A program made the position numbers and the translations under genes. The notes under the pieces are model-generated. The model was not told the origin of the DNA and ran no database searches. It saw only the letters and a program-made list of their open reading frames with translations. 11,607 nucleotides of DNA from Oligoflexales bacterium (lineage in GTDB: Bacteria; Bdellovibrionota_B; Oligoflexia; Oligoflexales; Bog-1112): assembly GCA_045105515.1 (NCBI GenBank), contig JBGCDR010000115.1, positions 1-11,607 of the forward strand, given 5' to 3'. Shown in pieces: positions 164 to 9,680 of the stretch (position 1 is its first letter; the number at the start of each line of letters is the position of its first letter).

Positions 164-751
164 TTATAATGCGATTATTTGAGATTCAGATTCTTTAATA
201 AAACACTCGTTGTGTTCCGAAAAGATCACAACACCCTTATTTTTTACGTGTTGCTTGATTCGGAAAGCTAAAAACTTCACTGCCTTTTGATCGAGACCAT
301 TTGTTGGCTCATCTAGAATCCACAAGGGGCACTCATCGATAAGAGTTGCTACTAAAAAAAGTTTCTTTATCTGCCCAAGAGACATCGCACGACATTTAAG
401 ATCCAAAATCTTATTAAGCTCTAATTCTTCGTTTGCTGCTTCCGAATACTTTAACAGATCGTTTTTCCGTATGCTTGCAATGTATTCCAAAAAAGTTCTG
501 CCACGAATGAATGGGTATGTTGTTGGTTTGTCTGGCAAAAAACTACGGTTCTTATTTAAATCATCAAATGAATAGGTGACCGTTCCTTCGAATTTTTGAT
601 CTAGACCACTTAAAATTTTTAGAAGAGTACTTTTACCTGCCCCATTTTTTCCATTCAATGCATAGGAACCAGACTCAAACGCATGGTTAAAGTTGTGGAT
701 AATCCTTTTGGATCCAAATGATTTACTGATACCTTGTGCTGAAACAATCAA
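164..751 (-). CDS. ABC transporter ATP-binding subunit (exporter type, ~195 aa)
   Basis: Walker A GKNGAGKST, signature variant MSLGQ, Walker B WILDEP, H-loop SEH. The TTG at 751 (LIVSAQGISKSFG) lies just after the permease stop at 756 and behind GGGGAC, so it is preferred over the ORF-track start at 814. Confidence 0.93.
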   Translation of the reverse strand: MIVSAQGISKSFGSKRIIHNFNHAFESGSYALNGKNGAGKSTLLKILSGLDQKFEGTVTYSFDDLNKNRSFLPDKPTTYPFIRGRTFLEYIASIRKNDLLKYSEAANEELELNKILDLKCRAMSLGQIKKLFLVATLIDECPLWILDEPTNGLDQKAVKFLAFRIKQHVKNKGVVIFSEHNECFIKESESQIIAL

Positions 752-755
752 TTTA

Positions 756-1754
756 TTATCGTCCCCATAAAAATAGTAGCAAGGCTGGCAATAATGCTCC
801 CAATAACCAAGCATGCGTAAATTTTAATATTCTAAGTGATAGACAAAGCATAAATACGATAAGAGCCACCAGCACAGCATAAATGTCCATCGCGACCATA
901 AAGTATCCAAGCATAAAGACTGGAATAGCTAGAATCATAAATGCGACTAAATCACTGTAAAAAACCTGGAAACGGGATGTAGGTAACATAGAAAAATAGT
1001 GCTTATATTGGTCATCTATATCGTGCATCCTCGTAACTAGCCGCGAAAAGTATGCCAACCCCCAGTACATCCCCACCGCATGGATCGAACCGAGTGAACT
1101 CTTGGTATATGGACTATTATAAAATATCAGATACCCAAGTGTCGCTAATAAGATATAATCCAAGCATATTTTGCCTTTTAATACAGCCAAAACTATCTGT
1201 AATCGCAAGATTATTGATGAGCTTGGGGTCGGTAAAAATTGAAATGACAACCCCCTACTCGCCTCCAATACCGGCAAGCAATGCTTATTTCCTAAATATA
1301 GGATGAGGATGGCTGTCAACGAAGCTGCAAAATCAATCAAGGTATACATGCAAAAGGCTGATAGGCTCTTAAGGAGTGGTGCTTTAGAACAAGATATAAA
1401 AAAACCTATCCAAGCAATCATGGGAATACTAACGGTAAAAAAGATCAGGCAGCGCAAGAGCGGGGCATAGAACCTGGGCAAAGGCAGAGTGTTAAGGAAC
1501 CCAATGATATTTTGATTTTTCGTAAAAATATCCGAGTGCAAAAGAGCAAATAATAAAAACACTAAATATACCTTAAACGATATATTTAAACTGCCTTCAG
1601 CGAGACAATTGCCTATATAACCAATATCTTGATTGGATAAAGTCGTGAGGATAAAAAGGCAAAACAAGTAGAAGATATTTCTTACTCTACTTGAAACTGC
1701 CTGATTTAATACAAGTAATTGTGTCCAAGACAAACTTCTTAAGAAGATTTTCAT
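756..1754 (-). CDS. Polytopic membrane protein, probable ABC exporter permease
   Basis: 332 aa with many hydrophobic segments. It sits directly upstream of the ATPase. Two 'LP..R' motifs (FLNTLPLPRF; YFSMLPTSRF) resemble those of ABC-2-like permease halves. Confidence 0.75.
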   Translation of the reverse strand: MKIFLRSLSWTQLLVLNQAVSSRVRNIFYLFCLFILTTLSNQDIGYIGNCLAEGSLNISFKVYLVFLLFALLHSDIFTKNQNIIGFLNTLPLPRFYAPLLRCLIFFTVSIPMIAWIGFFISCSKAPLLKSLSAFCMYTLIDFAASLTAILILYLGNKHCLPVLEASRGLSFQFLPTPSSSIILRLQIVLAVLKGKICLDYILLATLGYLIFYNSPYTKSSLGSIHAVGMYWGLAYFSRLVTRMHDIDDQYKHYFSMLPTSRFQVFYSDLVAFMILAIPVFMLGYFMVAMDIYAVLVALIVFMLCLSLRILKFTHAWLLGALLPALLLFLWGR

Positions 1755-1934
1755 CCAAACGGTGTCCCTTTTTCACTTTTTCCCTAGTAAGAATTATCCC
1801 TTGAATCCTTAAGAGGGTCGTTAGAAATCGCTTAGCGTGTGTATATTCTTTGCTAAGTGAAATGTAAACATGAAAGTACCCTCATTATTAGAGTTTGATG
1901 AGATTTATATTTTTTATTATTTTTTTAATATTGA

Positions 1935-1964
1935 TTGAATTTTTTTTTACACATTTTGTATCTT
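1935..1964 (+). promoter_or_regulatory. Candidate sigma70-type promoter for the precursor/operon
   Basis: TTGAAT (1935-1940), 18 nt spacer, TATCTT (1959-1964), in an AT-rich divergent intergenic region. Such matches arise easily in AT-rich DNA. Confidence 0.25.
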
Positions 1965-2035
1965 CCGCCCATCGTAAACAGATCATCGAATGTTGGACCA
2001 CATTGATGACAAACAACAGTATAAATGGAGTAAGT

Positions 2036-2113
2036 ATGTCTTTTGAAATCAACGTAATTGAGACAAGCGGACAAAATGCACAAACTGGATGTAACAGTTG
2101 TGGATGCCCCTAG
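2036..2113 (+). CDS. Putative RiPP precursor peptide, 25 aa, MSFEINVIETSGQNAQTGCNSCGCP
   Basis: ATG at 2036 with GGAG SD at 2027-2030. The C-terminal core is C-x-x-C-x-C-P. A hairpin terminator follows immediately, then the DUF692 operon. It is the 3' part of the ORF-track 1895..2113 call. Confidence 0.85.
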   Translation: MSFEINVIETSGQNAQTGCNSCGCP

Positions 2114-2115
2114 TT

Positions 2116-2146
2116 AAAATTAGCGGGGTGTCCCGCTAATTTTTCT
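2116..2146 (+). terminator. Intrinsic terminator/stabilising hairpin after the precursor
   Basis: Perfect 12-bp stem AAAATTAGCGGG (2116-2127), loop GTGT, CCCGCTAATTTT (2132-2143), with a short T tract. It starts 3 nt after the precursor stop. Confidence 0.85.
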
Positions 2147-2187
2147 CTAGATAACTTATTTCAACCTTAATACTGAGAATTGATCCA

Positions 2188-2724
2188 GTGATTATTGAGC
2201 AACTAAAGCAACAAAACCTTCATGAATACTGTGAGCTACAGCTGGCTATAGACTCAACAAGCTCGTTTATGGATTATGATGCAGATGAACGCATAGATAC
2301 ACTTCAGGACTTACTTAACTCGCGATTTAAAAATGGCAATTCGATCTTTCTGGTAGCGAAACAATCCAATCGCTTGGTGGGTTACGGTGAGATTCACGGC
2401 ATGAAAACAAAGAAGAAGAAACATGTTTGCTGGGCACTGGGTGGGTTCATCCCTTGCTTTCAAAGCCAAGGATTTGGTTCGAAAATGCTTTCAAGTATTT
2501 TAGATCATGCTGCAAAAAAATGGAGACGGCTTGATGTGACTGTGATGGATGGGAACATCAAATCGGTTAAGTTACTTAAGTCTTTCGGATTCCAAGAAGA
2601 AGGTAAAAGACATAAAGCCATCCATCATGATGGCAAGTACTACGATGAGATATACCTAGGGATAGATCTAAAAAAATGGAGACAAGGGCGTGTCAGCAAA
2701 AGCACGACAAAATCTATACGCTAA
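2188..2724 (+). CDS. GNAT family N-acetyltransferase
   Basis: Acetyl-CoA motif A QSQGFGSKML and the C-terminal motif N..SVKLLKSFGFQEEG...DGKYYDE. GTG start. Confidence 0.9.
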   Translation: MIIEQLKQQNLHEYCELQLAIDSTSSFMDYDADERIDTLQDLLNSRFKNGNSIFLVAKQSNRLVGYGEIHGMKTKKKKHVCWALGGFIPCFQSQGFGSKMLSSILDHAAKKWRRLDVTVMDGNIKSVKLLKSFGFQEEGKRHKAIHHDGKYYDEIYLGIDLKKWRQGRVSKSTTKSIR

Positions 2725-3502
2725 GCTTATCAATAGCAAAGAAGTTCGGATTCTATATAAAAATAGCTCACCTGAAGCCATCATGGCACAATTTGGGATT
2801 GGCCACACAGACTATGAGGCTATTTTTAGCTTTTTAAATCAAAAACAGCGAAGGTTTGATCGATCTGCACAACTAAACCTACGCAACAGGTGGTTTGGGG
2901 TTTTAGAGTGCCTTAGTAGCCTTGAAAAGTTCATGACTAAGCAAGAAATCGCATTAAATTGGCGAAAATTCATCAGAAATCTACCACTTGGGATCCCAAA
3001 AAACCCACACGCTGAGGCATTGGCTTTTATCGATTTTATGTTGCAAAATCATTCACCTGGCATACTCGCAAACGTCTTAAGGTATGAGAAAAATAAAAAT
3101 CAGGTTCTATTCTCTTTTTTAAATTCTGATTTTAAAAAAGCACAGTCATCATCTTATGAGCAATATGAGGACCTTAGCTACCCCTTCGTATTCCAAGGCT
3201 ACCTAATGCAAGATTTCAAATATGATTTCAGCAGCATTAACGATGGAAAGCTTGAAAGAAAAAATTCAACCGTTCTATTTGCCAAGAACCTTTCAGGTCC
3301 AGGGATCATCACTTTGAATGTAAATCGTGACTTGCAAGGACTTCTAATCAAACTAAATGGATTAAATAGCGTAGAAAAACTACTGCCTCTATACCCTGAG
3401 GTTGCTGCACATCAATTGGTTGGTACCTTGGAGACATTGAGTAAAATTGGAATACTAACCTTCCTAAAAGGGGGCAAAGATGAATGCAAGAAAAATTTCT
3501 AA
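2690..3502 (+). CDS. Probable MNIO partner protein with C-terminal RRE/winged-helix (DUF2063/MbnC/TglI-like role)
   Basis: Overlaps the DUF692 gene. It has a helical N-terminus, an 'EALAFIDF...LRYE' segment like DUF2063-type partners, and a C-terminal beta-strand + helix pattern (LLIKLNGLNSVEKL...LETLSKIGIL) typical of PqqD/RRE folds. The call rests on context plus pattern. Confidence 0.7.
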   Translation: MSAKARQNLYAKLINSKEVRILYKNSSPEAIMAQFGIGHTDYEAIFSFLNQKQRRFDRSAQLNLRNRWFGVLECLSSLEKFMTKQEIALNWRKFIRNLPLGIPKNPHAEALAFIDFMLQNHSPGILANVLRYEKNKNQVLFSFLNSDFKKAQSSSYEQYEDLSYPFVFQGYLMQDFKYDFSSINDGKLERKNSTVLFAKNLSGPGIITLNVNRDLQGLLIKLNGLNSVEKLLPLYPEVAAHQLVGTLETLSKIGILTFLKGGKDECKKNF

Positions 3503-4301
3503 GTTGGGGATAGGGCTTAGTTATATCCCTGATTTGCGAGCTGAGCTTTTGGCTCACCTCGACGAGATCGACTTTTTTGAGTTTTATTCCGAAAGCTTTT
3601 TCTATCCGAATTTTGATCCAATTCAAAAAAAGATAATTGCAGAAAAACCAATGGTTATGCATGGCTTAGATATGTCGCTTGGGGAGATTGTACCTGCAAA
3701 TCAGAAACATCAGAGCCAACTAGCCAAAGCTGTTAAGAATTATCAACCCAAATGGTTCAGTGATCATCTATGCATGACCAAATCTTCTGGAGAAGAAGTT
3801 GGGCATCTGATGCCCATTGAGTTCAATGACGAGGTTTTAGAAAACATTTGCAAAAAGATTACTGAAGTTTCAGAACTTTGTGATCTCCCTTTTCTCATCG
3901 AAAACATCACATATTATTACCAACTCCCTTTCGCTACCTATGGTGAATGCGAGTTTATAAGCAAGGTTGTTGAAAACTCTGATTGCGGAATCCTCTTGGA
4001 TGTCAATAATTTATACATCAATTCTGTAAATCATAGATACGACCCCTATAGCTTTATCGATCACTTACCCCATGAGCGGATAATTGAGGTTCACATAGCG
4101 GGTGGATCAAGAAAATTGGGCATGATGGTTGACACGCATGCAAACAAGATTCAAGCGGAAGTTTGGGCTTTACTAGAGTATGTTATGCGCCGCACTTCTG
4201 TAAAAGGGGTTGTTTTAGAACGAGATGCTAATATTCCTCCAATCAAGGATATCTTAGCTGAGCTTGCATACGCACGAGAGATTGCCAAGAGAACTTGTTA
4301 G
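3480..4301 (+). CDS. DUF692 family multinuclear non-heme iron-dependent oxidative enzyme (MNIO)
   Basis: Characteristic motifs: GIGL, HGLDMSLG, WFSDHLC, HLMP, FLIENI, LLDVNNLYINSVNH, EVHIAG, VDTH, VVLERD. 273 aa. SD GGGGG upstream. Confidence 0.95.
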   Translation: MNARKISKLGIGLSYIPDLRAELLAHLDEIDFFEFYSESFFYPNFDPIQKKIIAEKPMVMHGLDMSLGEIVPANQKHQSQLAKAVKNYQPKWFSDHLCMTKSSGEEVGHLMPIEFNDEVLENICKKITEVSELCDLPFLIENITYYYQLPFATYGECEFISKVVENSDCGILLDVNNLYINSVNHRYDPYSFIDHLPHERIIEVHIAGGSRKLGMMVDTHANKIQAEVWALLEYVMRRTSVKGVVLERDANIPPIKDILAELAYAREIAKRTC

Positions 4302-4309
4302 GAAAAAAG

Positions 4310-4876
4310 ATGGATCACACGTTAAAAGTTTCGCGATGCCTCGTCGTCGCTCATCCTGATGATGAAGTTATCTGGTTTGCTCCAGAATATTTTAACCTAA
4401 TTGTCATTGTATTTTTAGGGAGGGAAGACAAGCCTTGGATGGATCCTTGCCGGAAAAAGAGTCTGTTTGAGCATGACCTAGGCGATAAGATCCTCTGTTT
4501 GAATCTTATTGAATCTGGATTTTGGAAGGACGCCTCGAGAAGTAAAGAACATAGGTCAGCTTATGCCAAGACTCAAAGAGAACTAAAAGCAATTTTTAAT
4601 CGCTCCAGCTTTAACGAAATTTACACCCATGGCCCTGAAGGGGAATATGGGCATAGTGATCATACACTTGTCCATCAGGTTGTCAAAAAAGTGCTAAGAC
4701 CAGATCAAATGATGTATTACCCTGTGTCTCACACATCCAGATTATTTGACCTAGTACATAAAAGTGACACGGTACTGCGAAAAAGAATCATGCAAGTATA
4801 TAAGATGAATAAATGTTGGACTTGGAACGAAGATCATATTTTTAATGAAGAGATAAAGTATCGTGCAATTAAATAG
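4310..4876 (+). CDS. PIG-L/LmbE family metal-dependent de-N-acetylase
   Basis: AHPDDE motif and THGPEGEYGHSDH motif. ATG at 4310 behind AGGA is preferred to TTG 4295. Confidence 0.9.
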   Translation: MDHTLKVSRCLVVAHPDDEVIWFAPEYFNLIVIVFLGREDKPWMDPCRKKSLFEHDLGDKILCLNLIESGFWKDASRSKEHRSAYAKTQRELKAIFNRSSFNEIYTHGPEGEYGHSDHTLVHQVVKKVLRPDQMMYYPVSHTSRLFDLVHKSDTVLRKRIMQVYKMNKCWTWNEDHIFNEEIKYRAIK

Positions 4877-5579
4877 GCATAATAAAAAAATCAGGACCCT
4901 ACTAGGACTTGCCTCTATTCCATCTAGAAAGGAGATGATGCGGCAAACCTTGAAATCCATATCATCTCAAGTCGACCACATCGTGGTTTACCTCAACAGA
5001 TATGATCATGTTCCCGATTTTTTACGCTCTGATAAGATAAGTATCTTTGGCATTGATGGACCCGATTTGGGTGATGTAGGTAAGTTTTATGCCATTGAGC
5101 ACTGTAATGCTGAATTTTTTCTGACGATTGATGATGATATCATCTACCCACACAACTACGTTGCTGCTTTAATCGAAAGTTATCAAAATTGGGATGCAGA
5201 CACTATTATTTGTGTCCATGGAAATAAGATCCCCAAAAAAATAACTGCTTCCTATTATCAGGAGAAAGTAGGGCTGCACTTTTCATCCATTCTTGACAAG
5301 GACACCCTAGTAGATGTGCCAGGTACGGGGACTATGATCATCCAACCTAAGATGCATAGAATCTCGTTAGATTTATTTTCAAGACCAAATATGTCGGATA
5401 TCTGGTTGTACAAATACGCTCGTCTGAACAAGAAGCGAGTTGTGGCTATTAAACGGCAAAGTTTATGGCTAAAAGAGCAAGAGCATCAAGTGTGGAGTGA
5501 TTCGATCTATTCACAGCATAAATCTAATGATGGGTTTCAAATCAACATCATTAACAGATACCTAGATTACCTTGGATGA
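4863..5579 (+). CDS. GT-A fold (GT2-like) glycosyltransferase
   Basis: N-terminal LASIPSR...TLKSISSQVD, GDVGKF, the DxD motif in TIDDDIIYP, GTGT, and MSDIW. Confidence 0.85.
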   Translation: MQLNRHNKKIRTLLGLASIPSRKEMMRQTLKSISSQVDHIVVYLNRYDHVPDFLRSDKISIFGIDGPDLGDVGKFYAIEHCNAEFFLTIDDDIIYPHNYVAALIESYQNWDADTIICVHGNKIPKKITASYYQEKVGLHFSSILDKDTLVDVPGTGTMIIQPKMHRISLDLFSRPNMSDIWLYKYARLNKKRVVAIKRQSLWLKEQEHQVWSDSIYSQHKSNDGFQINIINRYLDYLG

Positions 5580-5583
5580 CAAT

Positions 5584-6345
5584 ATGGATCAAATAACGAA
5601 TAATTTTTCTGAAACTGGATACCTTATACTAAAGAATTTCCTCTCTGAAGGTGAATTTACTTCACTTAAACGAGAGGTAGAAAATTATGAGGCTAAGGCA
5701 CAAGAAAAGAATATGTGGATGAACTATTATGAAGCAGTGGAAGGTAGTAAACTACTAAACCGGATAGAAAACCTATCACCCTACAGTCGAGTTATTCATA
5801 ATTTAACGAGGGATAAAAGACTTCACGCTTTGATGACAAGCCTGACAGGCTCCCATTATTCCCTTCTTAAGGATAAAATAAACTTTAAAAGACCTGGGGG
5901 GAGAGGTTTTAAGCCTCATCAAGATGGTGCGGCCTTCTCTAAATTCACTCGCAAAGAAATCTTAACGGTTCTTATTCCGATTGATCATTTCACGAATAGT
6001 AATGGGTGTTTTGAGATCTATAATAGTAATAGGATTCCGAGGTTAATGGAACATCAAAATGGATCCTTAGAGTTTATGAAACTAGAGGAAAATAGGTGGG
6101 ATAAGGTGTTTCTAAAGCAAAGAGACATTATGATTTTTAGCGGTCGCTTAATACACTGTTCCAAGAATAATTGTGATTCAATGCCTCGCAGGGTCTGCTT
6201 CTTCACATACAATGATCTAAAAGATGGCAATCTCTTCGATGAATACCTGAACTATAAGCGCACTCATTTTCCACCTGAGCTAGAACGACAAGGTCAATCA
6301 AACCTCAATCACTGGACCTCCCATTTATCTTGCAAGATCCTTTAG
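5584..6345 (+). CDS. PhyH-family Fe(II)/2-oxoglutarate dioxygenase (PhnY-like sequence signature)
   Basis: GYLILKNFLS, KDKINFKRPGGRGFKPHQD (HxD), a distal His in LIHCS, and the 2OG-binding Arg in PRR. The start could be TTG 5572 or ATG 5584. Confidence 0.9.
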   Translation: MDQITNNFSETGYLILKNFLSEGEFTSLKREVENYEAKAQEKNMWMNYYEAVEGSKLLNRIENLSPYSRVIHNLTRDKRLHALMTSLTGSHYSLLKDKINFKRPGGRGFKPHQDGAAFSKFTRKEILTVLIPIDHFTNSNGCFEIYNSNRIPRLMEHQNGSLEFMKLEENRWDKVFLKQRDIMIFSGRLIHCSKNNCDSMPRRVCFFTYNDLKDGNLFDEYLNYKRTHFPPELERQGQSNLNHWTSHLSCKIL

Positions 6346-6355
6346 GAGAAAAGCT

Positions 6356-7174
6356 ATGTATCTATTACTTGGTCATAAAAGCGTAGACTGCATTCTTTCA
6401 AAAGTATTGCAAAGGTTTAAAGGGGTAAATCGATGGGAAAGGTACCTTCATCTACTAGCAACTCATTCTTATTTACAAAATCTAGAAGGTACCATTTCTA
6501 AAAAACCAGTTTTTTCAGACATCAAGGGTCTAAAAACTGTCGCCCCGAAGTATTATGACACAGTATACAAGGATTTTTCTAAAAATAGCAAGGTGAACAC
6601 CGAGCGACTTTGCAATGGGTTTTTCGACGATGTGATTTTGGAGCTATCAAAACGAAGTGTCGATATTCATCAAACATTTAGCTTTCTTGTTCGTTATATC
6701 ATCATCCACTCCATGCAGCAGTACACCAAGGGAACTACTGAAGATTCACTGGGTTTAGTGATAATAAATGGTCAGGATCATCTTGAGAAAGAGGATTACA
6801 TAGAATTGATGGTGCATCAAATGAATCATATGATCATGTTTTTAGATGATAAGCTCAACCCCCAAGTTTCTAATGAAAACAAATGTCTCCCTATAACCTT
6901 GCCGATCAATACAGCAGCAGGCACAAGAAGCATGTCATTTTATGTCCTCCTTCACAGTTTTATGGTAGGTGTCGAGGTTTTGCTGTTTAGAAAAAAATTT
7001 GCCACAGAATCTTTCCACGGGGCTTTTCATGGGTCAACCTCTCAACTTACCTCAAGATGCATGCATGCCTTTCACCTTCTTGCTGATAAACGGGATTATT
7101 TACTACCAAGAGGTGTATGGATTTTAGAAGCATATAGAGAACAGTTAAGCTATTTTCAGGAGCACTTTTTGTGA
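6356..7174 (+). CDS. aKG-HExxH-like protein (putative peptide beta-hydroxylase), HQxxH variant
   Basis: Pattern GTT...LGLVIIN...DYIELMVHQMNHMIMF...LLHS matches the RiPP-associated HExxH domain layout (ExxxHExxH plus a distal His). SD AGGAG at 6344-6348. Confidence 0.65.
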   Translation: MYLLLGHKSVDCILSKVLQRFKGVNRWERYLHLLATHSYLQNLEGTISKKPVFSDIKGLKTVAPKYYDTVYKDFSKNSKVNTERLCNGFFDDVILELSKRSVDIHQTFSFLVRYIIIHSMQQYTKGTTEDSLGLVIINGQDHLEKEDYIELMVHQMNHMIMFLDDKLNPQVSNENKCLPITLPINTAAGTRSMSFYVLLHSFMVGVEVLLFRKKFATESFHGAFHGSTSQLTSRCMHAFHLLADKRDYLLPRGVWILEAYREQLSYFQEHFL

Positions 7175-7971
7175 TAGATAGAAATTTTTTTATGACAATC
7201 TACCGACAGATAAACCAACATAGTTATGAAGCCTTACTTGAAAACAGGCTAAGTGAGTTAGCGGTCTTTCAAGCTGATGCCAAGGATGAGGAGCTTCATC
7301 AAGTTTTAAAGTATCATGGCTTTTTACTCTTGAAGTTTTCTGTAAAAGTATCCTTAGATACAGTGCGAGCTAGGCTTACAAACTTATTAGGTGAGCCGGT
7401 TAGGGATAGTGGCGTAGAGGATTCCCTTCACACTACCATAGCTTCAGTCAATCAAGGACGGTATTTTTCCAATTCCTGTTACACTCAGCCTTTGCATATG
7501 GATGACGCCCATTGTCATCAGATACCAAGGCTGATTACCCTGCATTGTGTAAGGCCTGCTAATAAGGGGGGGGTGTCAACCTTATTAAAATTTGCAGACA
7601 TCGAAGAGCAAATTTTACCATCTTATGCTGATGTTTTCGAAAAGCTTTTTGACAAAAACTGCCTGAGAATAAGAGGGATGAAAGGTGAGCTAAACCGACC
7701 ACTTCTGGAACACCTCGAAGAGGATTACTTAGGAATGGCTTTTCCGGCAATTCTCGAAGGTCTTAGTGCGGATGCCAGAATTGAGCAACTATATCGTGAG
7801 GTTTACAGCTACATCCATAATCCAAAAAATCAGATTAGATTTTCAATGAAGCCAAATGAGGTCCTTATTATAGATAACTTTCGTACCTTTCATGGCCGGA
7901 CAAGTTTTCCAGCAAGCTCTTCTCGCTTGCTCTATCGAACTTGTTTCCCTGCCAACACCTTCCGGAAATAG
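7171..7971 (+). CDS. TauD/TfdA (clavaminate synthase-like) Fe(II)/2OG dioxygenase
   Basis: PLHMDD (HxD), LHCVRPANKGGVSTL, IIDNFRTFHGRTSF and RLLYR. GTGA start/stop overlap with the upstream gene. Confidence 0.92.
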   Translation: MIDRNFFMTIYRQINQHSYEALLENRLSELAVFQADAKDEELHQVLKYHGFLLLKFSVKVSLDTVRARLTNLLGEPVRDSGVEDSLHTTIASVNQGRYFSNSCYTQPLHMDDAHCHQIPRLITLHCVRPANKGGVSTLLKFADIEEQILPSYADVFEKLFDKNCLRIRGMKGELNRPLLEHLEEDYLGMAFPAILEGLSADARIEQLYREVYSYIHNPKNQIRFSMKPNEVLIIDNFRTFHGRTSFPASSSRLLYRTCFPANTFRK

Positions 7972-7985
7972 GATAAATAAACGGT

Positions 7986-9148
7986 ATGGTGGGTTTATTG
8001 ATTTCATCTTTTTGTCTAGCCTGTGCAGATTTTGCGATTAATTTTTTTCTACAGTTATGGATCAATGATTTCTTTGGCAACCCTGGCTTGGTTTCCTTAT
8101 TTTTTTCAGGATCCTTGCTTGTAAGGATCATACTCATCCAATTTTATCCGATGATTTTAAGGTCCGTCTCAGTCAGACAATCCTTATTGCTTGTTCCGTG
8201 CATTCATATAATGCTCATGGCATTATCATATTTTTTTAGGTTAATGCCGTATAAGACCACTTTTTTTGCGTTGTTCTTAGTTGCAAATACTTGCTTTCAA
8301 TCTGCGAGTAGGGTGACGTTGCAAGCAGCAGTTGACAAGATCATACCTTCAAGCAAAATTGGTCAATTTTTCAAGAGATATCAACTTGCATCTTCTTTAG
8401 CAGCATTTACCGGACCACTTTTTCTTTTGACCTTTGATGTGAAAGTCGATAATTATTATAATTTTGTGGCATGTATGATTTTTTTATACGGAATCGCTTT
8501 TTTGCTTTTGAAGGGTATCAAGATTTCCCCAAAAACTGATTATAAGGCTCCTAAAAACAAACCTACCACAAGCACTCCCAGGTTCTCCTCAGTGTTGCTG
8601 CGCAAAAAATATTTTATGCAATCATTTTGCTTAATATAGCACTTATCCCGATCCATTTGTTTATTCCTATATGTAGGTACCACAACCCAAATATGGGTGC
8701 TAACTACCTTGTCTTTTTACAAGTGACCTTTGCTTTTGGTGGTATAATTCCTGGGCTTTATATGAAAACATTAGCTGAAAGGCGTAGATCTTTTAGCACA
8801 CAAGTTGGTTCTCGATATTTGTGTTTAGCTTTCTTCTCTTTACTACTTACTGACCTTGGTCTATCGCCACTCAGCTACTTAAGTTTGCTCGGTATAGGCG
8901 TCTGCATAGGTTTTATTAATGTACTTCTACAGACATACTTAGTGGAGATCCTTCCTTCTCATATTCAGCATCAGGTGTTTTGTAACATTGAAAACGTTAT
9001 ACTTATCACACGGATGATTTCATTTTTGATTGTAGGCTTTTTCTTAACATCGCTAGCACCAGCCTTGCATTACAGCCTAAGTGCGGCACTCTTGATTTCT
9101 ACAGCCGCATGGTTGTTTTATTATAGGAGAACCTTAGATTATGTATGA
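7986..9148 (+). pseudogene. MFS transporter split by a single-base frameshift (or a sequencing error)
   Basis: ORFs 7986..8639 and 8627..9148 look like the N- and C-halves of a 12-TM MFS exporter. Adding one A to the A6 run at 8604-8609 gives LLRKKIFYAIILLNIALIP and a 387-aa continuous ORF. Confidence 0.75.
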
Positions 9149-9680
9149 CATTCCAGATTTCAAGGTCCCCAATGAGTCCATGAGAGGGACTGCTCGAGTT
9201 CGCTCCTCTCCAACCAATTTAGCTACGTGGGTAACAGATAACCTGAAAAGCGATTCAAAATCCTTTAGTGTCCTAGATTTTGGGGCCGGACACGGTTTCG
9301 ATGCAGCGTATTTAAATAGTAAAGGGTTTCATTGCGAGGGATGGGACCCCGTATTTTCAAGTACTCTAGCCCCAAGGAAAGAGCATTATGATTTAGTGTT
9401 ACTAGCTTATGTTTTAAATGTGATACCTTCTCTTAACTTACGCAAAAAAGTTTTACTTCAGGCATGGCATTACAGTCTTACCCACCTTCTGATTGCGGTC
9501 AGGATGAATACCGTCATGAGACCGACCCAAAAATACCAAGATGGAGTCATCACCTCGATTGGGGCTTTTCAAAAAGTTTACACCCCTATAGAAATCAAGG
9601 AATGGTGTGATCAAATCCTTGATAGTAAAGGGACTTTTGTGGGTAAGAATACTTTAATATATAGAAAAAACAGCTGTTAA
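9141..9680 (+). CDS. Class I SAM-dependent methyltransferase
   Basis: VLDFGAGHG motif I, GWDP, YDLVLLAYVLNVI, and DGVITSIGAFQKVY. It resembles one domain of the 'DNA phosphorothioation-associated putative methyltransferase' family. Confidence 0.85.
   Translation: MYDIPDFKVPNESMRGTARVRSSPTNLATWVTDNLKSDSKSFSVLDFGAGHGFDAAYLNSKGFHCEGWDPVFSSTLAPRKEHYDLVLLAYVLNVIPSLNLRKKVLLQAWHYSLTHLLIAVRMNTVMRPTQKYQDGVITSIGAFQKVYTPIEIKEWCDQILDSKGTFVGKNTLIYRKNSC

Follow-up and report, generated by a model that had tools for sequence, protein, structure and literature searches.

The MNIO enzymes are rapidly gaining ground as a source of unusual peptide chemistry; the difficulty lies in recognizing their substrates, which go unannotated. 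Here we analyzed an 11,607-nucleotide (nt) stretch of DNA from an Oligoflexales bacterium (assembly GCA_045105515.1, contig JBGCDR010000115.1), hereafter the window, which is one entire contig (C115) of a 6.29-Mb genome in 461 contigs. At positions 2036–2113 it contains an open reading frame (ORF) of 25 codons, followed by genes for a protein with an RRE-type (RiPP recognition element) domain, here called the partner, and for a multi-iron oxidase of the MNIO (DUF692) family. RiPP denotes a peptide that is made by ribosomes and modified after translation. We consider it highly probable, at the least, that this ORF is the real precursor of the MNIO cluster. The features on which the argument turns are the following:

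2027–2030, forward strand: Shine–Dalgarno-like GGAG, 5 nt ahead of the ATG at 2036
2036–2113, forward strand: precursor peptide gene, 25 codons from ATG 2036 plus TAG (2111–2113); product MSFEINVIETSGQNAQTGCNSCGCP
2036–2089, forward strand: leader, residues 1–18
2090–2110, forward strand: core, residues 19–25, CNSCGCP
2116–2143, forward strand: GC-rich hairpin directly 3′ of the stop codon, 12-bp stem and 4-nt loop, running into a T-run; −20.7 kcal/mol, z −5.32
2690–3502, forward strand: partner protein of 270 amino acids (aa), with an N-terminal helical domain and a C-terminal RRE-type domain; TglI/NGO1945 fold, 'PME-type 2'
3480–4301, forward strand: MNIO (DUF692) oxidase; PF05114, 9e-80, positions 2–262 of 263; 23-nt overlap with the partner gene

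The precursor gene and its conservation

In the ORF list of the window the peptide appears only inside a 72-aa frame that starts at TTG 1895, and the precursor is a gene that gene callers would miss. An earlier note, made from the letters of the window, had proposed exactly this, a hidden 25-aa peptide preceded by GGAG and buried in a misleading 72-aa call; the coordinates and the ORF list agree with it. The same note described the leader as acidic and lacking a signal peptide, and indeed the peptide has no Lys, no Arg and no hydrophobic signal segment. Since 43 ORFs of at least 20 aa fall within 3 kb of the same list, an ORF of this size proves nothing alone. However, the pattern CN[ST]..CP-stop occurs a single time in the 12,571,044 six-frame codons of the whole genome, and that occurrence is at the precursor site.

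Relatives were gathered through the neighbouring proteins and not through the peptide itself. This gave 13 loci, each with a partner homologue at E 7.7e-20 or lower: the window, 10 other genomes and two metagenome contigs. Small ORFs upstream of homologous enzyme loci had been named beforehand as a check, and a homologous one is present upstream, on the same strand, in all 13. Moreover, a purine-rich Shine–Dalgarno sequence (GGAG, AGGA or AAGGA) occupies the same spot before each ATG. The encoded peptides include those of Legionella drozanskii, MDLTIEIIEESTTSVEVLCNSVACP, and Fluoribacter gormanii, MDLDIEIIEESTDSVEVLCNSVGCP, that of G010, which shares its family with the window genome, MENMVEVIEVIEVIEEATDSVEVLCNSCGCP, and that of G360, MQFEMIVVEETSASVEVLCNSTGCP; a variant in G399 has the C-terminal end ...IMIVETINDDEVIEEMLCNTAY. 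When an alignment with the 41-aa G399 peptide at its head was run against the protein collection, 37 candidates yielded seven proteins. Six of these are new members of the family, without a name or labeled 'hypothetical protein', and they had been called only because an upstream in-frame start lengthened them.

The pattern of nucleotide change is that of a coding sequence. When nine Legionellaceae-type loci are compared pairwise, identity averages 0.86, 0.94 and 0.65 at the first, second and third codon position, respectively; in ungapped register, the flanks of these loci give 0.31 (75–16 nt upstream) and 0.39 (the 60 nt past the stop). Invariant residues are encoded by synonymous codons (Cys by TGT/TGC, Asn by AAC/AAT, Ser by AGT/TCT/TCA, Pro by all four), and the stop is TAG or TAA depending on the locus. 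In seven Legionellaceae-type loci the proportion of non-synonymous differences (pN) is 0.00–0.13 versus 0.31–0.89 for synonymous ones (pS). Comparison of the window with other loci gives pN 0.44–0.50 versus pS 0.59–0.92, this pN being high because the leader has diverged. The codon-position pattern shows that selection acts on the peptide sequence. In 8 of 12 loci an in-frame stop lies 0–9 codons ahead of the aligned ATG, which shows that the short start is the real one and that the 72-aa frame of the window is an accident of missing stops.

An alignment of nine sequences (A5) has M1, I5, I8, E9, C19, N20, S21, C24 and P25 invariant. Over 18 distinct sequences, C19 and N20 (window numbering) do not vary, position 21 is Ser and once Thr, and 17 end in x-[GAST]-C-P. 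Only the window and G010 have Cys at position 22, where G360 has Thr and the Legionellaceae-type and database sequences have Val. G399 is a relative with a single core Cys, its peptide ending in CNTAY. Thus, of the CxxCxCP core put forward in the earlier note, C-N-S/T is kept across the family and the C-P end in 17 of 18 sequences, whereas the middle Cys is not conserved; the signature of the family combines C-N-S/T with C-P at the C terminus. In the leader, hydrophobic and acidic residues alternate, and basic ones are almost absent. Among the models of NCBIfam none matched the peptide at E ≤ 1, and in Pfam three of nine members gave a noise-level match (E 0.015) to an unrelated family and the others none.

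The hairpin past the stop codon is also a shared feature. In the window none of 200 shuffled sequences folds equally well, and in each of the nine loci that were folded the stop is followed by a hairpin, of z −3.0 to −4.7 and of varying sequence. This set comprised nine loci, without L030, L031, L024 and L025; the downstream sequences of L030 and L031 look alike. A simple terminator scan of the window did not report the 2116–2143 hairpin; folding showed that its stem takes up part of the T-run. Set between the precursor gene and those of the enzymes, the hairpin is likely to terminate transcription in part. No Rfam family was matched in window positions 1650–2300.

The partner protein and the oxidase

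The partner has no Pfam family (E ≤ 0.01), no NCBIfam match and no PDB relative detectable by sequence profile. A structural model built from a seven-sequence alignment (pLDDT 77.4, pTM 0.72) consists of a helical N-domain (residues 3–144) and a C-domain (164–259) with four strands and several helices. Foldseek matched this model to TglI (8hi7_A, E 2.3e-6, TM 0.56) and NGO1945 (3dee, E 1.9e-4, TM 0.71 by target length); the next match had E 0.03, and MbnC (7fc0_C) was at rank 21 with E 0.85. According to the available text of PMC10880893, TglI has a helical N-domain and an RRE C-domain and binds its substrate by strand pairing. Proteins of TglI-type fold that are free of the DUF2063 signature are termed 'PME-type 2' partners and are paired with signal-less precursors, as the available part of the MNIO landscape paper has it (PMC12452194).

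It had been suggested in the earlier note that the FEINVIE segment of the leader forms a β-strand docking on the RRE of the 2690–3502 protein. Modeling of the complex favors this idea. The model of the partner with the peptide scored 0.78, against 0.11 for the best of three controls; the mark of 0.78 is reached by 116 of 157 solved complexes and by 2 of 215 mismatched pairs. Contact agreement between runs was at least 49% and peptide pLDDT at least 57. The confident contacts place peptide residues 1–12 against partner residues 203–212 (strand 206–211), 214–218 and 242–253 (two helices), all within the C-domain, and the modeled geometry is the canonical one of a leader on an RRE. Leader residues ~1–12 therefore probably dock, in the way modeled, on the RRE-type domain of the partner.

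We next consider the MNIO. Its iron ligands are identical to those of TglH in eight of nine positions, the ninth falling outside the aligned stretch: H96, E141, D174, N177, H205, D218, H220 and E247 correspond to TglH H107, E151, D184, N187, H216, D229, H231 and E258 (TglH ligands as listed in the available text of PMC10880893). The enzyme scores below every named NCBIfam equivalog cut-off, with 225.6 bits for BufB (cut-off 310), 208.5 for HvfB (360), 127.1 for ApyH (400), 59.8 for ChrH (600) and 47.2 for MbnB (TIGR04159; 325). In a sequence search of the PDB it matched 3bww at 4.3e-44, and TglH with only 74 bits. The Cys at position 19 is favored as its target because it is the only Cys common to all 18 sequences, and judging from this conservation we think it rather likely that the MNIO would oxidize Cys19. 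BufB and HvfB are thiooxazole-forming types (PMC13097082, available text). Because these are the nearest MNIO subfamilies, a thiooxazole or an oxazolone/thioamide may be named by analogy as the product of Cys19 oxidation, a tentative guess. It is possible, if somewhat doubtful, that the enzyme performs a reaction type so far undescribed.

In a tree of 13 MNIO rows, weakened by long branches, the two other MNIOs of the window genome split with support of 93/97 from the group that holds the C-N-S-linked enzymes. Their loci, L001 (G000:C449) and L002 (G000:C357), each comprise a Cys-rich ORF with a signal peptide, the MNIO and a next gene, and judged by their ORF translations they look bufferin-type. 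L002 continues with an ORF that reads as sigma-factor-like.

A separate MNIO system was found in another genome of the same order (L021, G017:C4:11045-14443), with all four genes on the minus strand. A 42-aa ORF (2881–3009), MLKEIVLTENESNEEVENRHGRRWRNHWRNCWRNCWRNCTCR, has an acidic leader and WRNC repeats; it is followed by a 321-aa MNIO (1889–2854), by a partner (1129–1899) whose N-domain matches our partner profile at E 7.8e-10 and, last, by a large Cys-rich ORF (1–1107) that by eye looks radical-SAM-like.

Companion genes and distribution of the cluster

The genes at 2188–9148 lie on one strand and mostly have overlapping ends; upstream of them, an ATPase and a membrane protein are encoded on the other strand. 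Apart from the partner and the MNIO, the window encodes:

164–1754, reverse strand: ATP-binding cassette (ABC) ATPase (164–814; PF00005, 2.1e-18) and membrane protein (756–1754), divergent; probably export or immunity
2188–2724, forward strand: GNAT acetyltransferase; PF13420, 5.2e-14
4295–4876, forward strand: PIG-L-type de-N-acetylase; PF02585, 4e-8
4863–5579, forward strand: KfiA-like glycosyltransferase of N-acetylglucosamine (GlcNAc)-transferase type, by PDB sequence search
5572–6345, forward strand: PhyH-type Fe/2-oxoglutarate dioxygenase; PF05721, 9.5e-18
6356–7174, forward strand: 272-aa HQxxH relative of the α-ketoglutarate (aKG)-HExxH peptide β-hydroxylases; TIGR04267, E 1.2e-3, 18.9 bits versus a cut-off of 40
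7171–7971, forward strand: TauD/TfdA-type Fe/2-oxoglutarate dioxygenase; PF02668, 3.5e-25
7986–9148, forward strand: possible exporter, a major facilitator superfamily (MFS)-type transporter in two overlapping ORFs (7986–8639 and 8627–9148); PF07690 matches, both sub-cut-off

By BLASTP, the window ORFs have the following homologues in seven related loci:

GNAT and partner: 7 of 7 loci each
MNIO: 7 of 7 loci, 43–47% identity
PhyH: 6 loci (33–36% identity), also G360
TauD: 6 loci, also G399
HQxxH protein: 3 loci, 31–36% identity
PIG-L: 2 loci (G201 and G209, 38–42% identity), also G360
Glycosyltransferase: 2 loci (G201 and G209, 41–43% identity), also G360
ABC ATPase: 3 loci, 33–38% identity

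Orthologues of the GNAT, PhyH, TauD, HQxxH, PIG-L, glycosyltransferase and ABC ATPase genes thus recur beside the same peptide in another phylum. The GNAT homologue keeps its position in all seven loci compared; it is absent from G360 and on the opposite strand in G399. The window ABC ATPase has its counterparts, at the identities given above, within the G201, G209 and G079 clusters, and the Legionellaceae clusters have a fused ABC exporter in place of the MFS protein. Constant across loci are only the precursor, the partner, the MNIO and a transporter. G360 has PIG-L, the glycosyltransferase and PhyH, and no GNAT, TauD or HQxxH gene nearby. In G399, the relative ending in CNTAY (L025, G399:C24 696-821 and neighbours), we found TauD, a 278-aa unknown protein, an ABC ATPase and GNAT, and no PhyH, glycosyltransferase or PIG-L within 8 kb. 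PhyH stands beside a C-P end in all eight loci with enough flank and is absent from the single locus without C-P, a single contrast that hints that PhyH acts on the C-terminal part of the peptide.

Heparosan synthase B and KfiA are GlcNAc-transferring enzymes. The window glycosyltransferase matches residues 295–526 of the former, its C-terminal half, at 1.3e-29, and KfiA at 1.2e-14. Because this KfiA-like transferase adjoins a PIG-L de-N-acetylase, the pair, kept in G201, G209 and G360, suggests a putative decoration of the peptide with GlcNAc that is then converted to glucosamine.

In the HQxxH protein the Glu of HExxH is replaced by Gln. The motif reads HQMNH in the window and HQITH in the F. 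gormanii homologue (L007 5591-6424), the two proteins being 31% identical. From the motif, a hydrolytic role is unlikely and an oxygenase role is possible. Enzymes of the aKG-HExxH type hydroxylate and can also cleave peptide backbones oxidatively, as stated in the available text of PMC12636437.

Two candidate members or matches were rejected. The methyltransferase at 9141–9680 and another that lies upstream of the G010 peptide have only the S-adenosylmethionine (SAM) motif in common; related clusters hold no counterpart of the window enzyme, which probably lies outside the pathway. No similarity was detected between the membrane protein at 756–1754 and the DUF6136-like protein encoded in the Legionellaceae clusters.

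The cluster is rare and patchily distributed. A scan of a genome collection with the MNIO confirmed 2 loci among 60 pattern matches (L. drozanskii and F. gormanii), and a metagenome scan confirmed 2 among 429. Whole-genome searches with the partner alignment were positive in 2 of 61 relatives of the window genome, 3 of 95 genomes of its order, 3 of 131 of its phylum, 7 of 203 in the L. drozanskii family (which holds 206, with 3 left unscored) and 3 of 400 in a sample of that family's class. That family is Legionellaceae (Pseudomonadota), and the window genome belongs to another phylum. The precursor family itself is present in 2 of the 131 genomes of the window's phylum and in 7 of the 203 scored Legionellaceae. 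Even G001, a genome of the same genus that is 94% complete, has no partner homologue. Among 1.84 billion proteins, an exhaustive profile search placed 113 representative relatives of the partner at E ≤ 1e-3, of which 76 reach 1e-10 or lower and 17 reach 1e-30 or lower; a word-indexed search returned four clusters, missed known Legionella members and is unfit as a measure of rarity.

Legionellaceae loci of the cluster are flanked by genes of mobile elements: a phage-type integrase in L006 (911–2191), a NikA-like mobilisation protein and a ParA-like ATPase in L007 (2–337 and 1072–1797), and ArdA, the single-stranded DNA-binding protein SSB and ISL3 transposases in L014 (1214–2281 and 11865–12859). 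This patchy, cross-phylum and mobile-element-linked pattern fits horizontal spread, of which we infer no direction, and the cluster looks like a mobile accessory trait.

The U-box is a eukaryote-type ubiquitin-ligase domain. A 257-aa U-box protein (PF04564, 4e-9) is encoded on the minus strand at 5165–5938 of L013 (G010:C317), ~1 kb upstream of the G010 precursor gene.

Interpretation and comparison with known systems

The best explanation of the 2036–2113 ORF is, with high probability, that it encodes the leader and core of a ribosomally made, enzymatically modified peptide. From the ORF, its conservation, the synteny, the folds and the family scores, together with the modeled docking, we infer the following sequence of events. 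The acidic leader (~1–12, with F-E-I-N-V-I-E) would bind as an added β-strand to the RRE-type C-domain of the partner and so present the core CNSCGCP to the partner-bound MNIO. The latter would most likely oxidize Cys19 of the (L)-C-N-S/T motif, possibly also Cys24, with a heterocycle of thiooxazole or oxazolone/thioamide type as a first guess. In tailoring, the PhyH, TauD and HQxxH enzymes might then hydroxylate the peptide, the KfiA-like transferase add GlcNAc, PIG-L de-N-acetylate this sugar and GNAT bring in an acetyl group, and the product would be exported by the ABC or MFS transporters. Taken as one set, these hydroxylations, GlcNAc addition with de-N-acetylation, acetylation and subsequent export have about an even chance of being right. 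The hairpin past the stop would let the precursor transcript outnumber that of the enzymes.

Several observations weigh against this reading. Where nearly all relatives have S-V/I-E-V-L before the core Cys, the window has QNAQTG, and its peptide may be a divergent or weakened copy. The complex job that scored 0.78 lies outside the calibration (its 25-residue chain is shorter than any calibration chain, none of which has fewer than 30 residues, and its alignments were custom), so the pass may reflect likeness to solved leader–partner complexes. The chemistry of the MNIO cannot be read from homology, given an enzyme under every equivalog cut-off, and its position relative to the MNIO of the WRNC-repeat system is unsettled in the 13-row, long-branch tree. 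GNAT, TauD, HQxxH, PIG-L and the glycosyltransferase are each lacking in one locus or more. For the putative MFS exporter the sequence reads as two ORFs in different frames, which could reflect a frameshift, whether genuine or introduced in assembly, or a pair of genes of half size. Finally, family scans found no protease for leader removal encoded in the window or in related loci.

The lack of a protease also speaks for a reading in which the peptide is only a carrier, as in the pearlin/3-thiaglutamate system. The enzymes would then assemble a small molecule at its C-terminal end, and the product would be a modified amino acid or a di- or tripeptide cut off from it, perhaps oxidatively by the HQxxH enzyme, and not a peptide of seven residues. 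The TglI fold of the partner and a very short core, whose invariant part can shrink to C-N-T-A-Y, speak for such a scaffold, as does the capacity of aKG-HExxH enzymes for oxidative backbone cleavage (PMC12636437, available text). However, neither the window nor the related loci encode a PEARL/LanB-type enzyme that would add an amino acid, the HQxxH gene is absent from L. drozanskii, G201 and G360, and retention of the C-terminal C-P in 17 of 18 sequences suggests that the whole core matters. On balance we regard a mere carrier as improbable.

Two further explanations dispense with modification altogether. A short ORF in the 5′ region of an operon, with a stable hairpin and T-run past its stop in 9 of 9 loci, could be a translation-coupled attenuator whose peptide has no role of its own. 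Attenuator peptides require particular codons only. Here, selection is at the amino-acid level, C-N-S...C-P being held despite synonymous change; moreover, the hairpin begins past the stop codon and does not overlap the ORF, the modeled binding of the leader to the partner is well above controls, and the region matched no Rfam family, all of which makes regulation by the ORF very improbable. Slightly less credible still is an unmodified Cys-rich metal-binding peptide or a chance ORF. Three Cys within six residues of the window core invite the former and the frequency with which small ORFs arise by chance the latter, yet the three-Cys set is not conserved across the family, the ORF is linked to an MNIO and partner in 13 of 13 loci, and the codon-position pattern and the genome-wide uniqueness of the motif exclude chance.

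If the modified-peptide reading is taken to its full extent, the cluster would make a new class of MNIO product, through an undescribed reaction on Cys-Asn-Ser/Thr of a seven-residue core, hydroxylated and glucosamine-bearing. Carried by mobile elements, it would pass between the Legionella family and a bacterium of another phylum that is associated with hosts or prey, and its role would lie in life within eukaryotic or bacterial hosts or in action against them, for example in capturing metal or in antagonism. We think it unlikely that all of this holds jointly. A glycosylated MNIO peptide, if true, would to our knowledge be the first.

In the open literature on MNIO/DUF692 enzymes and Legionella RiPPs, with subscription-only papers and the supplements of the landscape paper outside the scope, we found no description of this precursor or cluster, and no paper matched five peptide strings of the precursor family. 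The available text of the landscape paper (PMC12452194) mentions Legionella only for bufferins and reports many small MNIO clusters without identified precursors; the present family could be listed as an unnamed small cluster in its supplements. A natural-product gene cluster around a multi-iron oxidase, common to an uncultured bacterium and several Legionella relatives, is therefore undescribed in the literature searched. Together with the empty searches for precursor models in Pfam and NCBIfam, this bears out the earlier suggestion that the peptide stands outside known precursor types. The analysis yields a defined precursor family (18 sequences, with invariant C-N-S/T in all and a C-P end in 17), a recognition partner and a minimal gene set. 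Natural variants, namely Cys, Val or Thr at core position 4 and CNTAY without PhyH, glycosyltransferase and PIG-L, already suggest which enzyme acts where, and the G399 contrast could reveal the enzyme acting on the C-P end.

How does this system compare with characterized ones? As far as the available text of PMC12636437 describes them, the pfl/pos clusters of Pseudomonas (PflA-F) likewise combine a GNAT, an aKG-HExxH-type enzyme, an MNIO and transporters and have no protease. In contrast, their precursor is long, with a Gln run, a C-terminal ARMD and no core Cys, their MNIO is fused to a nitroreductase, and they have a true HExxH instead of HQxxH (same source). For the chryseobasin system (ChrA/ChrH), the window MNIO reaches 59.8 bits against the ChrH cut-off of 600. 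From aminopyruvatide (ApyA/ApyHI) the window differs in an MNIO below the ApyH cut-off and in a precursor that ends in Cys-Pro and not in a C-terminal Asp.

The loose resemblance to methanobactin (MbnA, MbnB-MbnC) seen in the earlier note proved weak. Both have in common a precursor of very small size whose short core bears two spaced Cys, an MNIO that depends on the leader and has a partner, and an exporter dedicated to the system. However, the MNIO fails the MbnB cut-off (47.2 versus 325) and scores far better against BufB (225.6), the partner has the TglI/NGO1945 and not the MbnC fold, the leader is acidic whereas that of MbnA is basic, no NCBIfam precursor model matched, and the window has no other methanobactin-operon genes. 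The bufferins and captophorins (BufA-BufBC, HvfA-HvfBC, FonA-FonBC) are nearest by MNIO profile score, and in both cases Cys residues are the likely targets. Even so, the MNIO falls under the BufB and HvfB cut-offs (310 and 360), the precursor lacks a Sec signal, DUF2282, EGKCG and Cys-Lys repeats, the partner lacks the DUF2063 Pfam signature (and is thus not PME-type 1), and there is no DoxX.

The 3-thiaglutamate/pearlin system of Pseudomonas syringae (TglA/TglH-TglI) differs in that no PEARL/LanB enzyme was found among the 15 window proteins scanned or in related loci, the window Cys being gene-encoded. Further differences are a score of only 74 bits between the window MNIO and TglH, a partner gene placed before that of the enzyme, and tailoring genes (GNAT, three dioxygenase-type genes, glycosyltransferase and PIG-L) without Tgl counterparts. 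The likeness lies in the partner fold, with its helical N-domain and RRE-type C-domain, in a precursor without a signal peptide and with a Cys-bearing C-terminal end, in the kept iron ligands of TglH, and in a leader that, by prediction, joins the partner as an extra strand, the mode given for TglA in the available text of PMC10880893. Three general features of MNIO RiPP systems are found at this locus: an MNIO with its ligands, an adjacent partner with a DUF2063-like and RRE-type fold, and a small co-conserved precursor gene.

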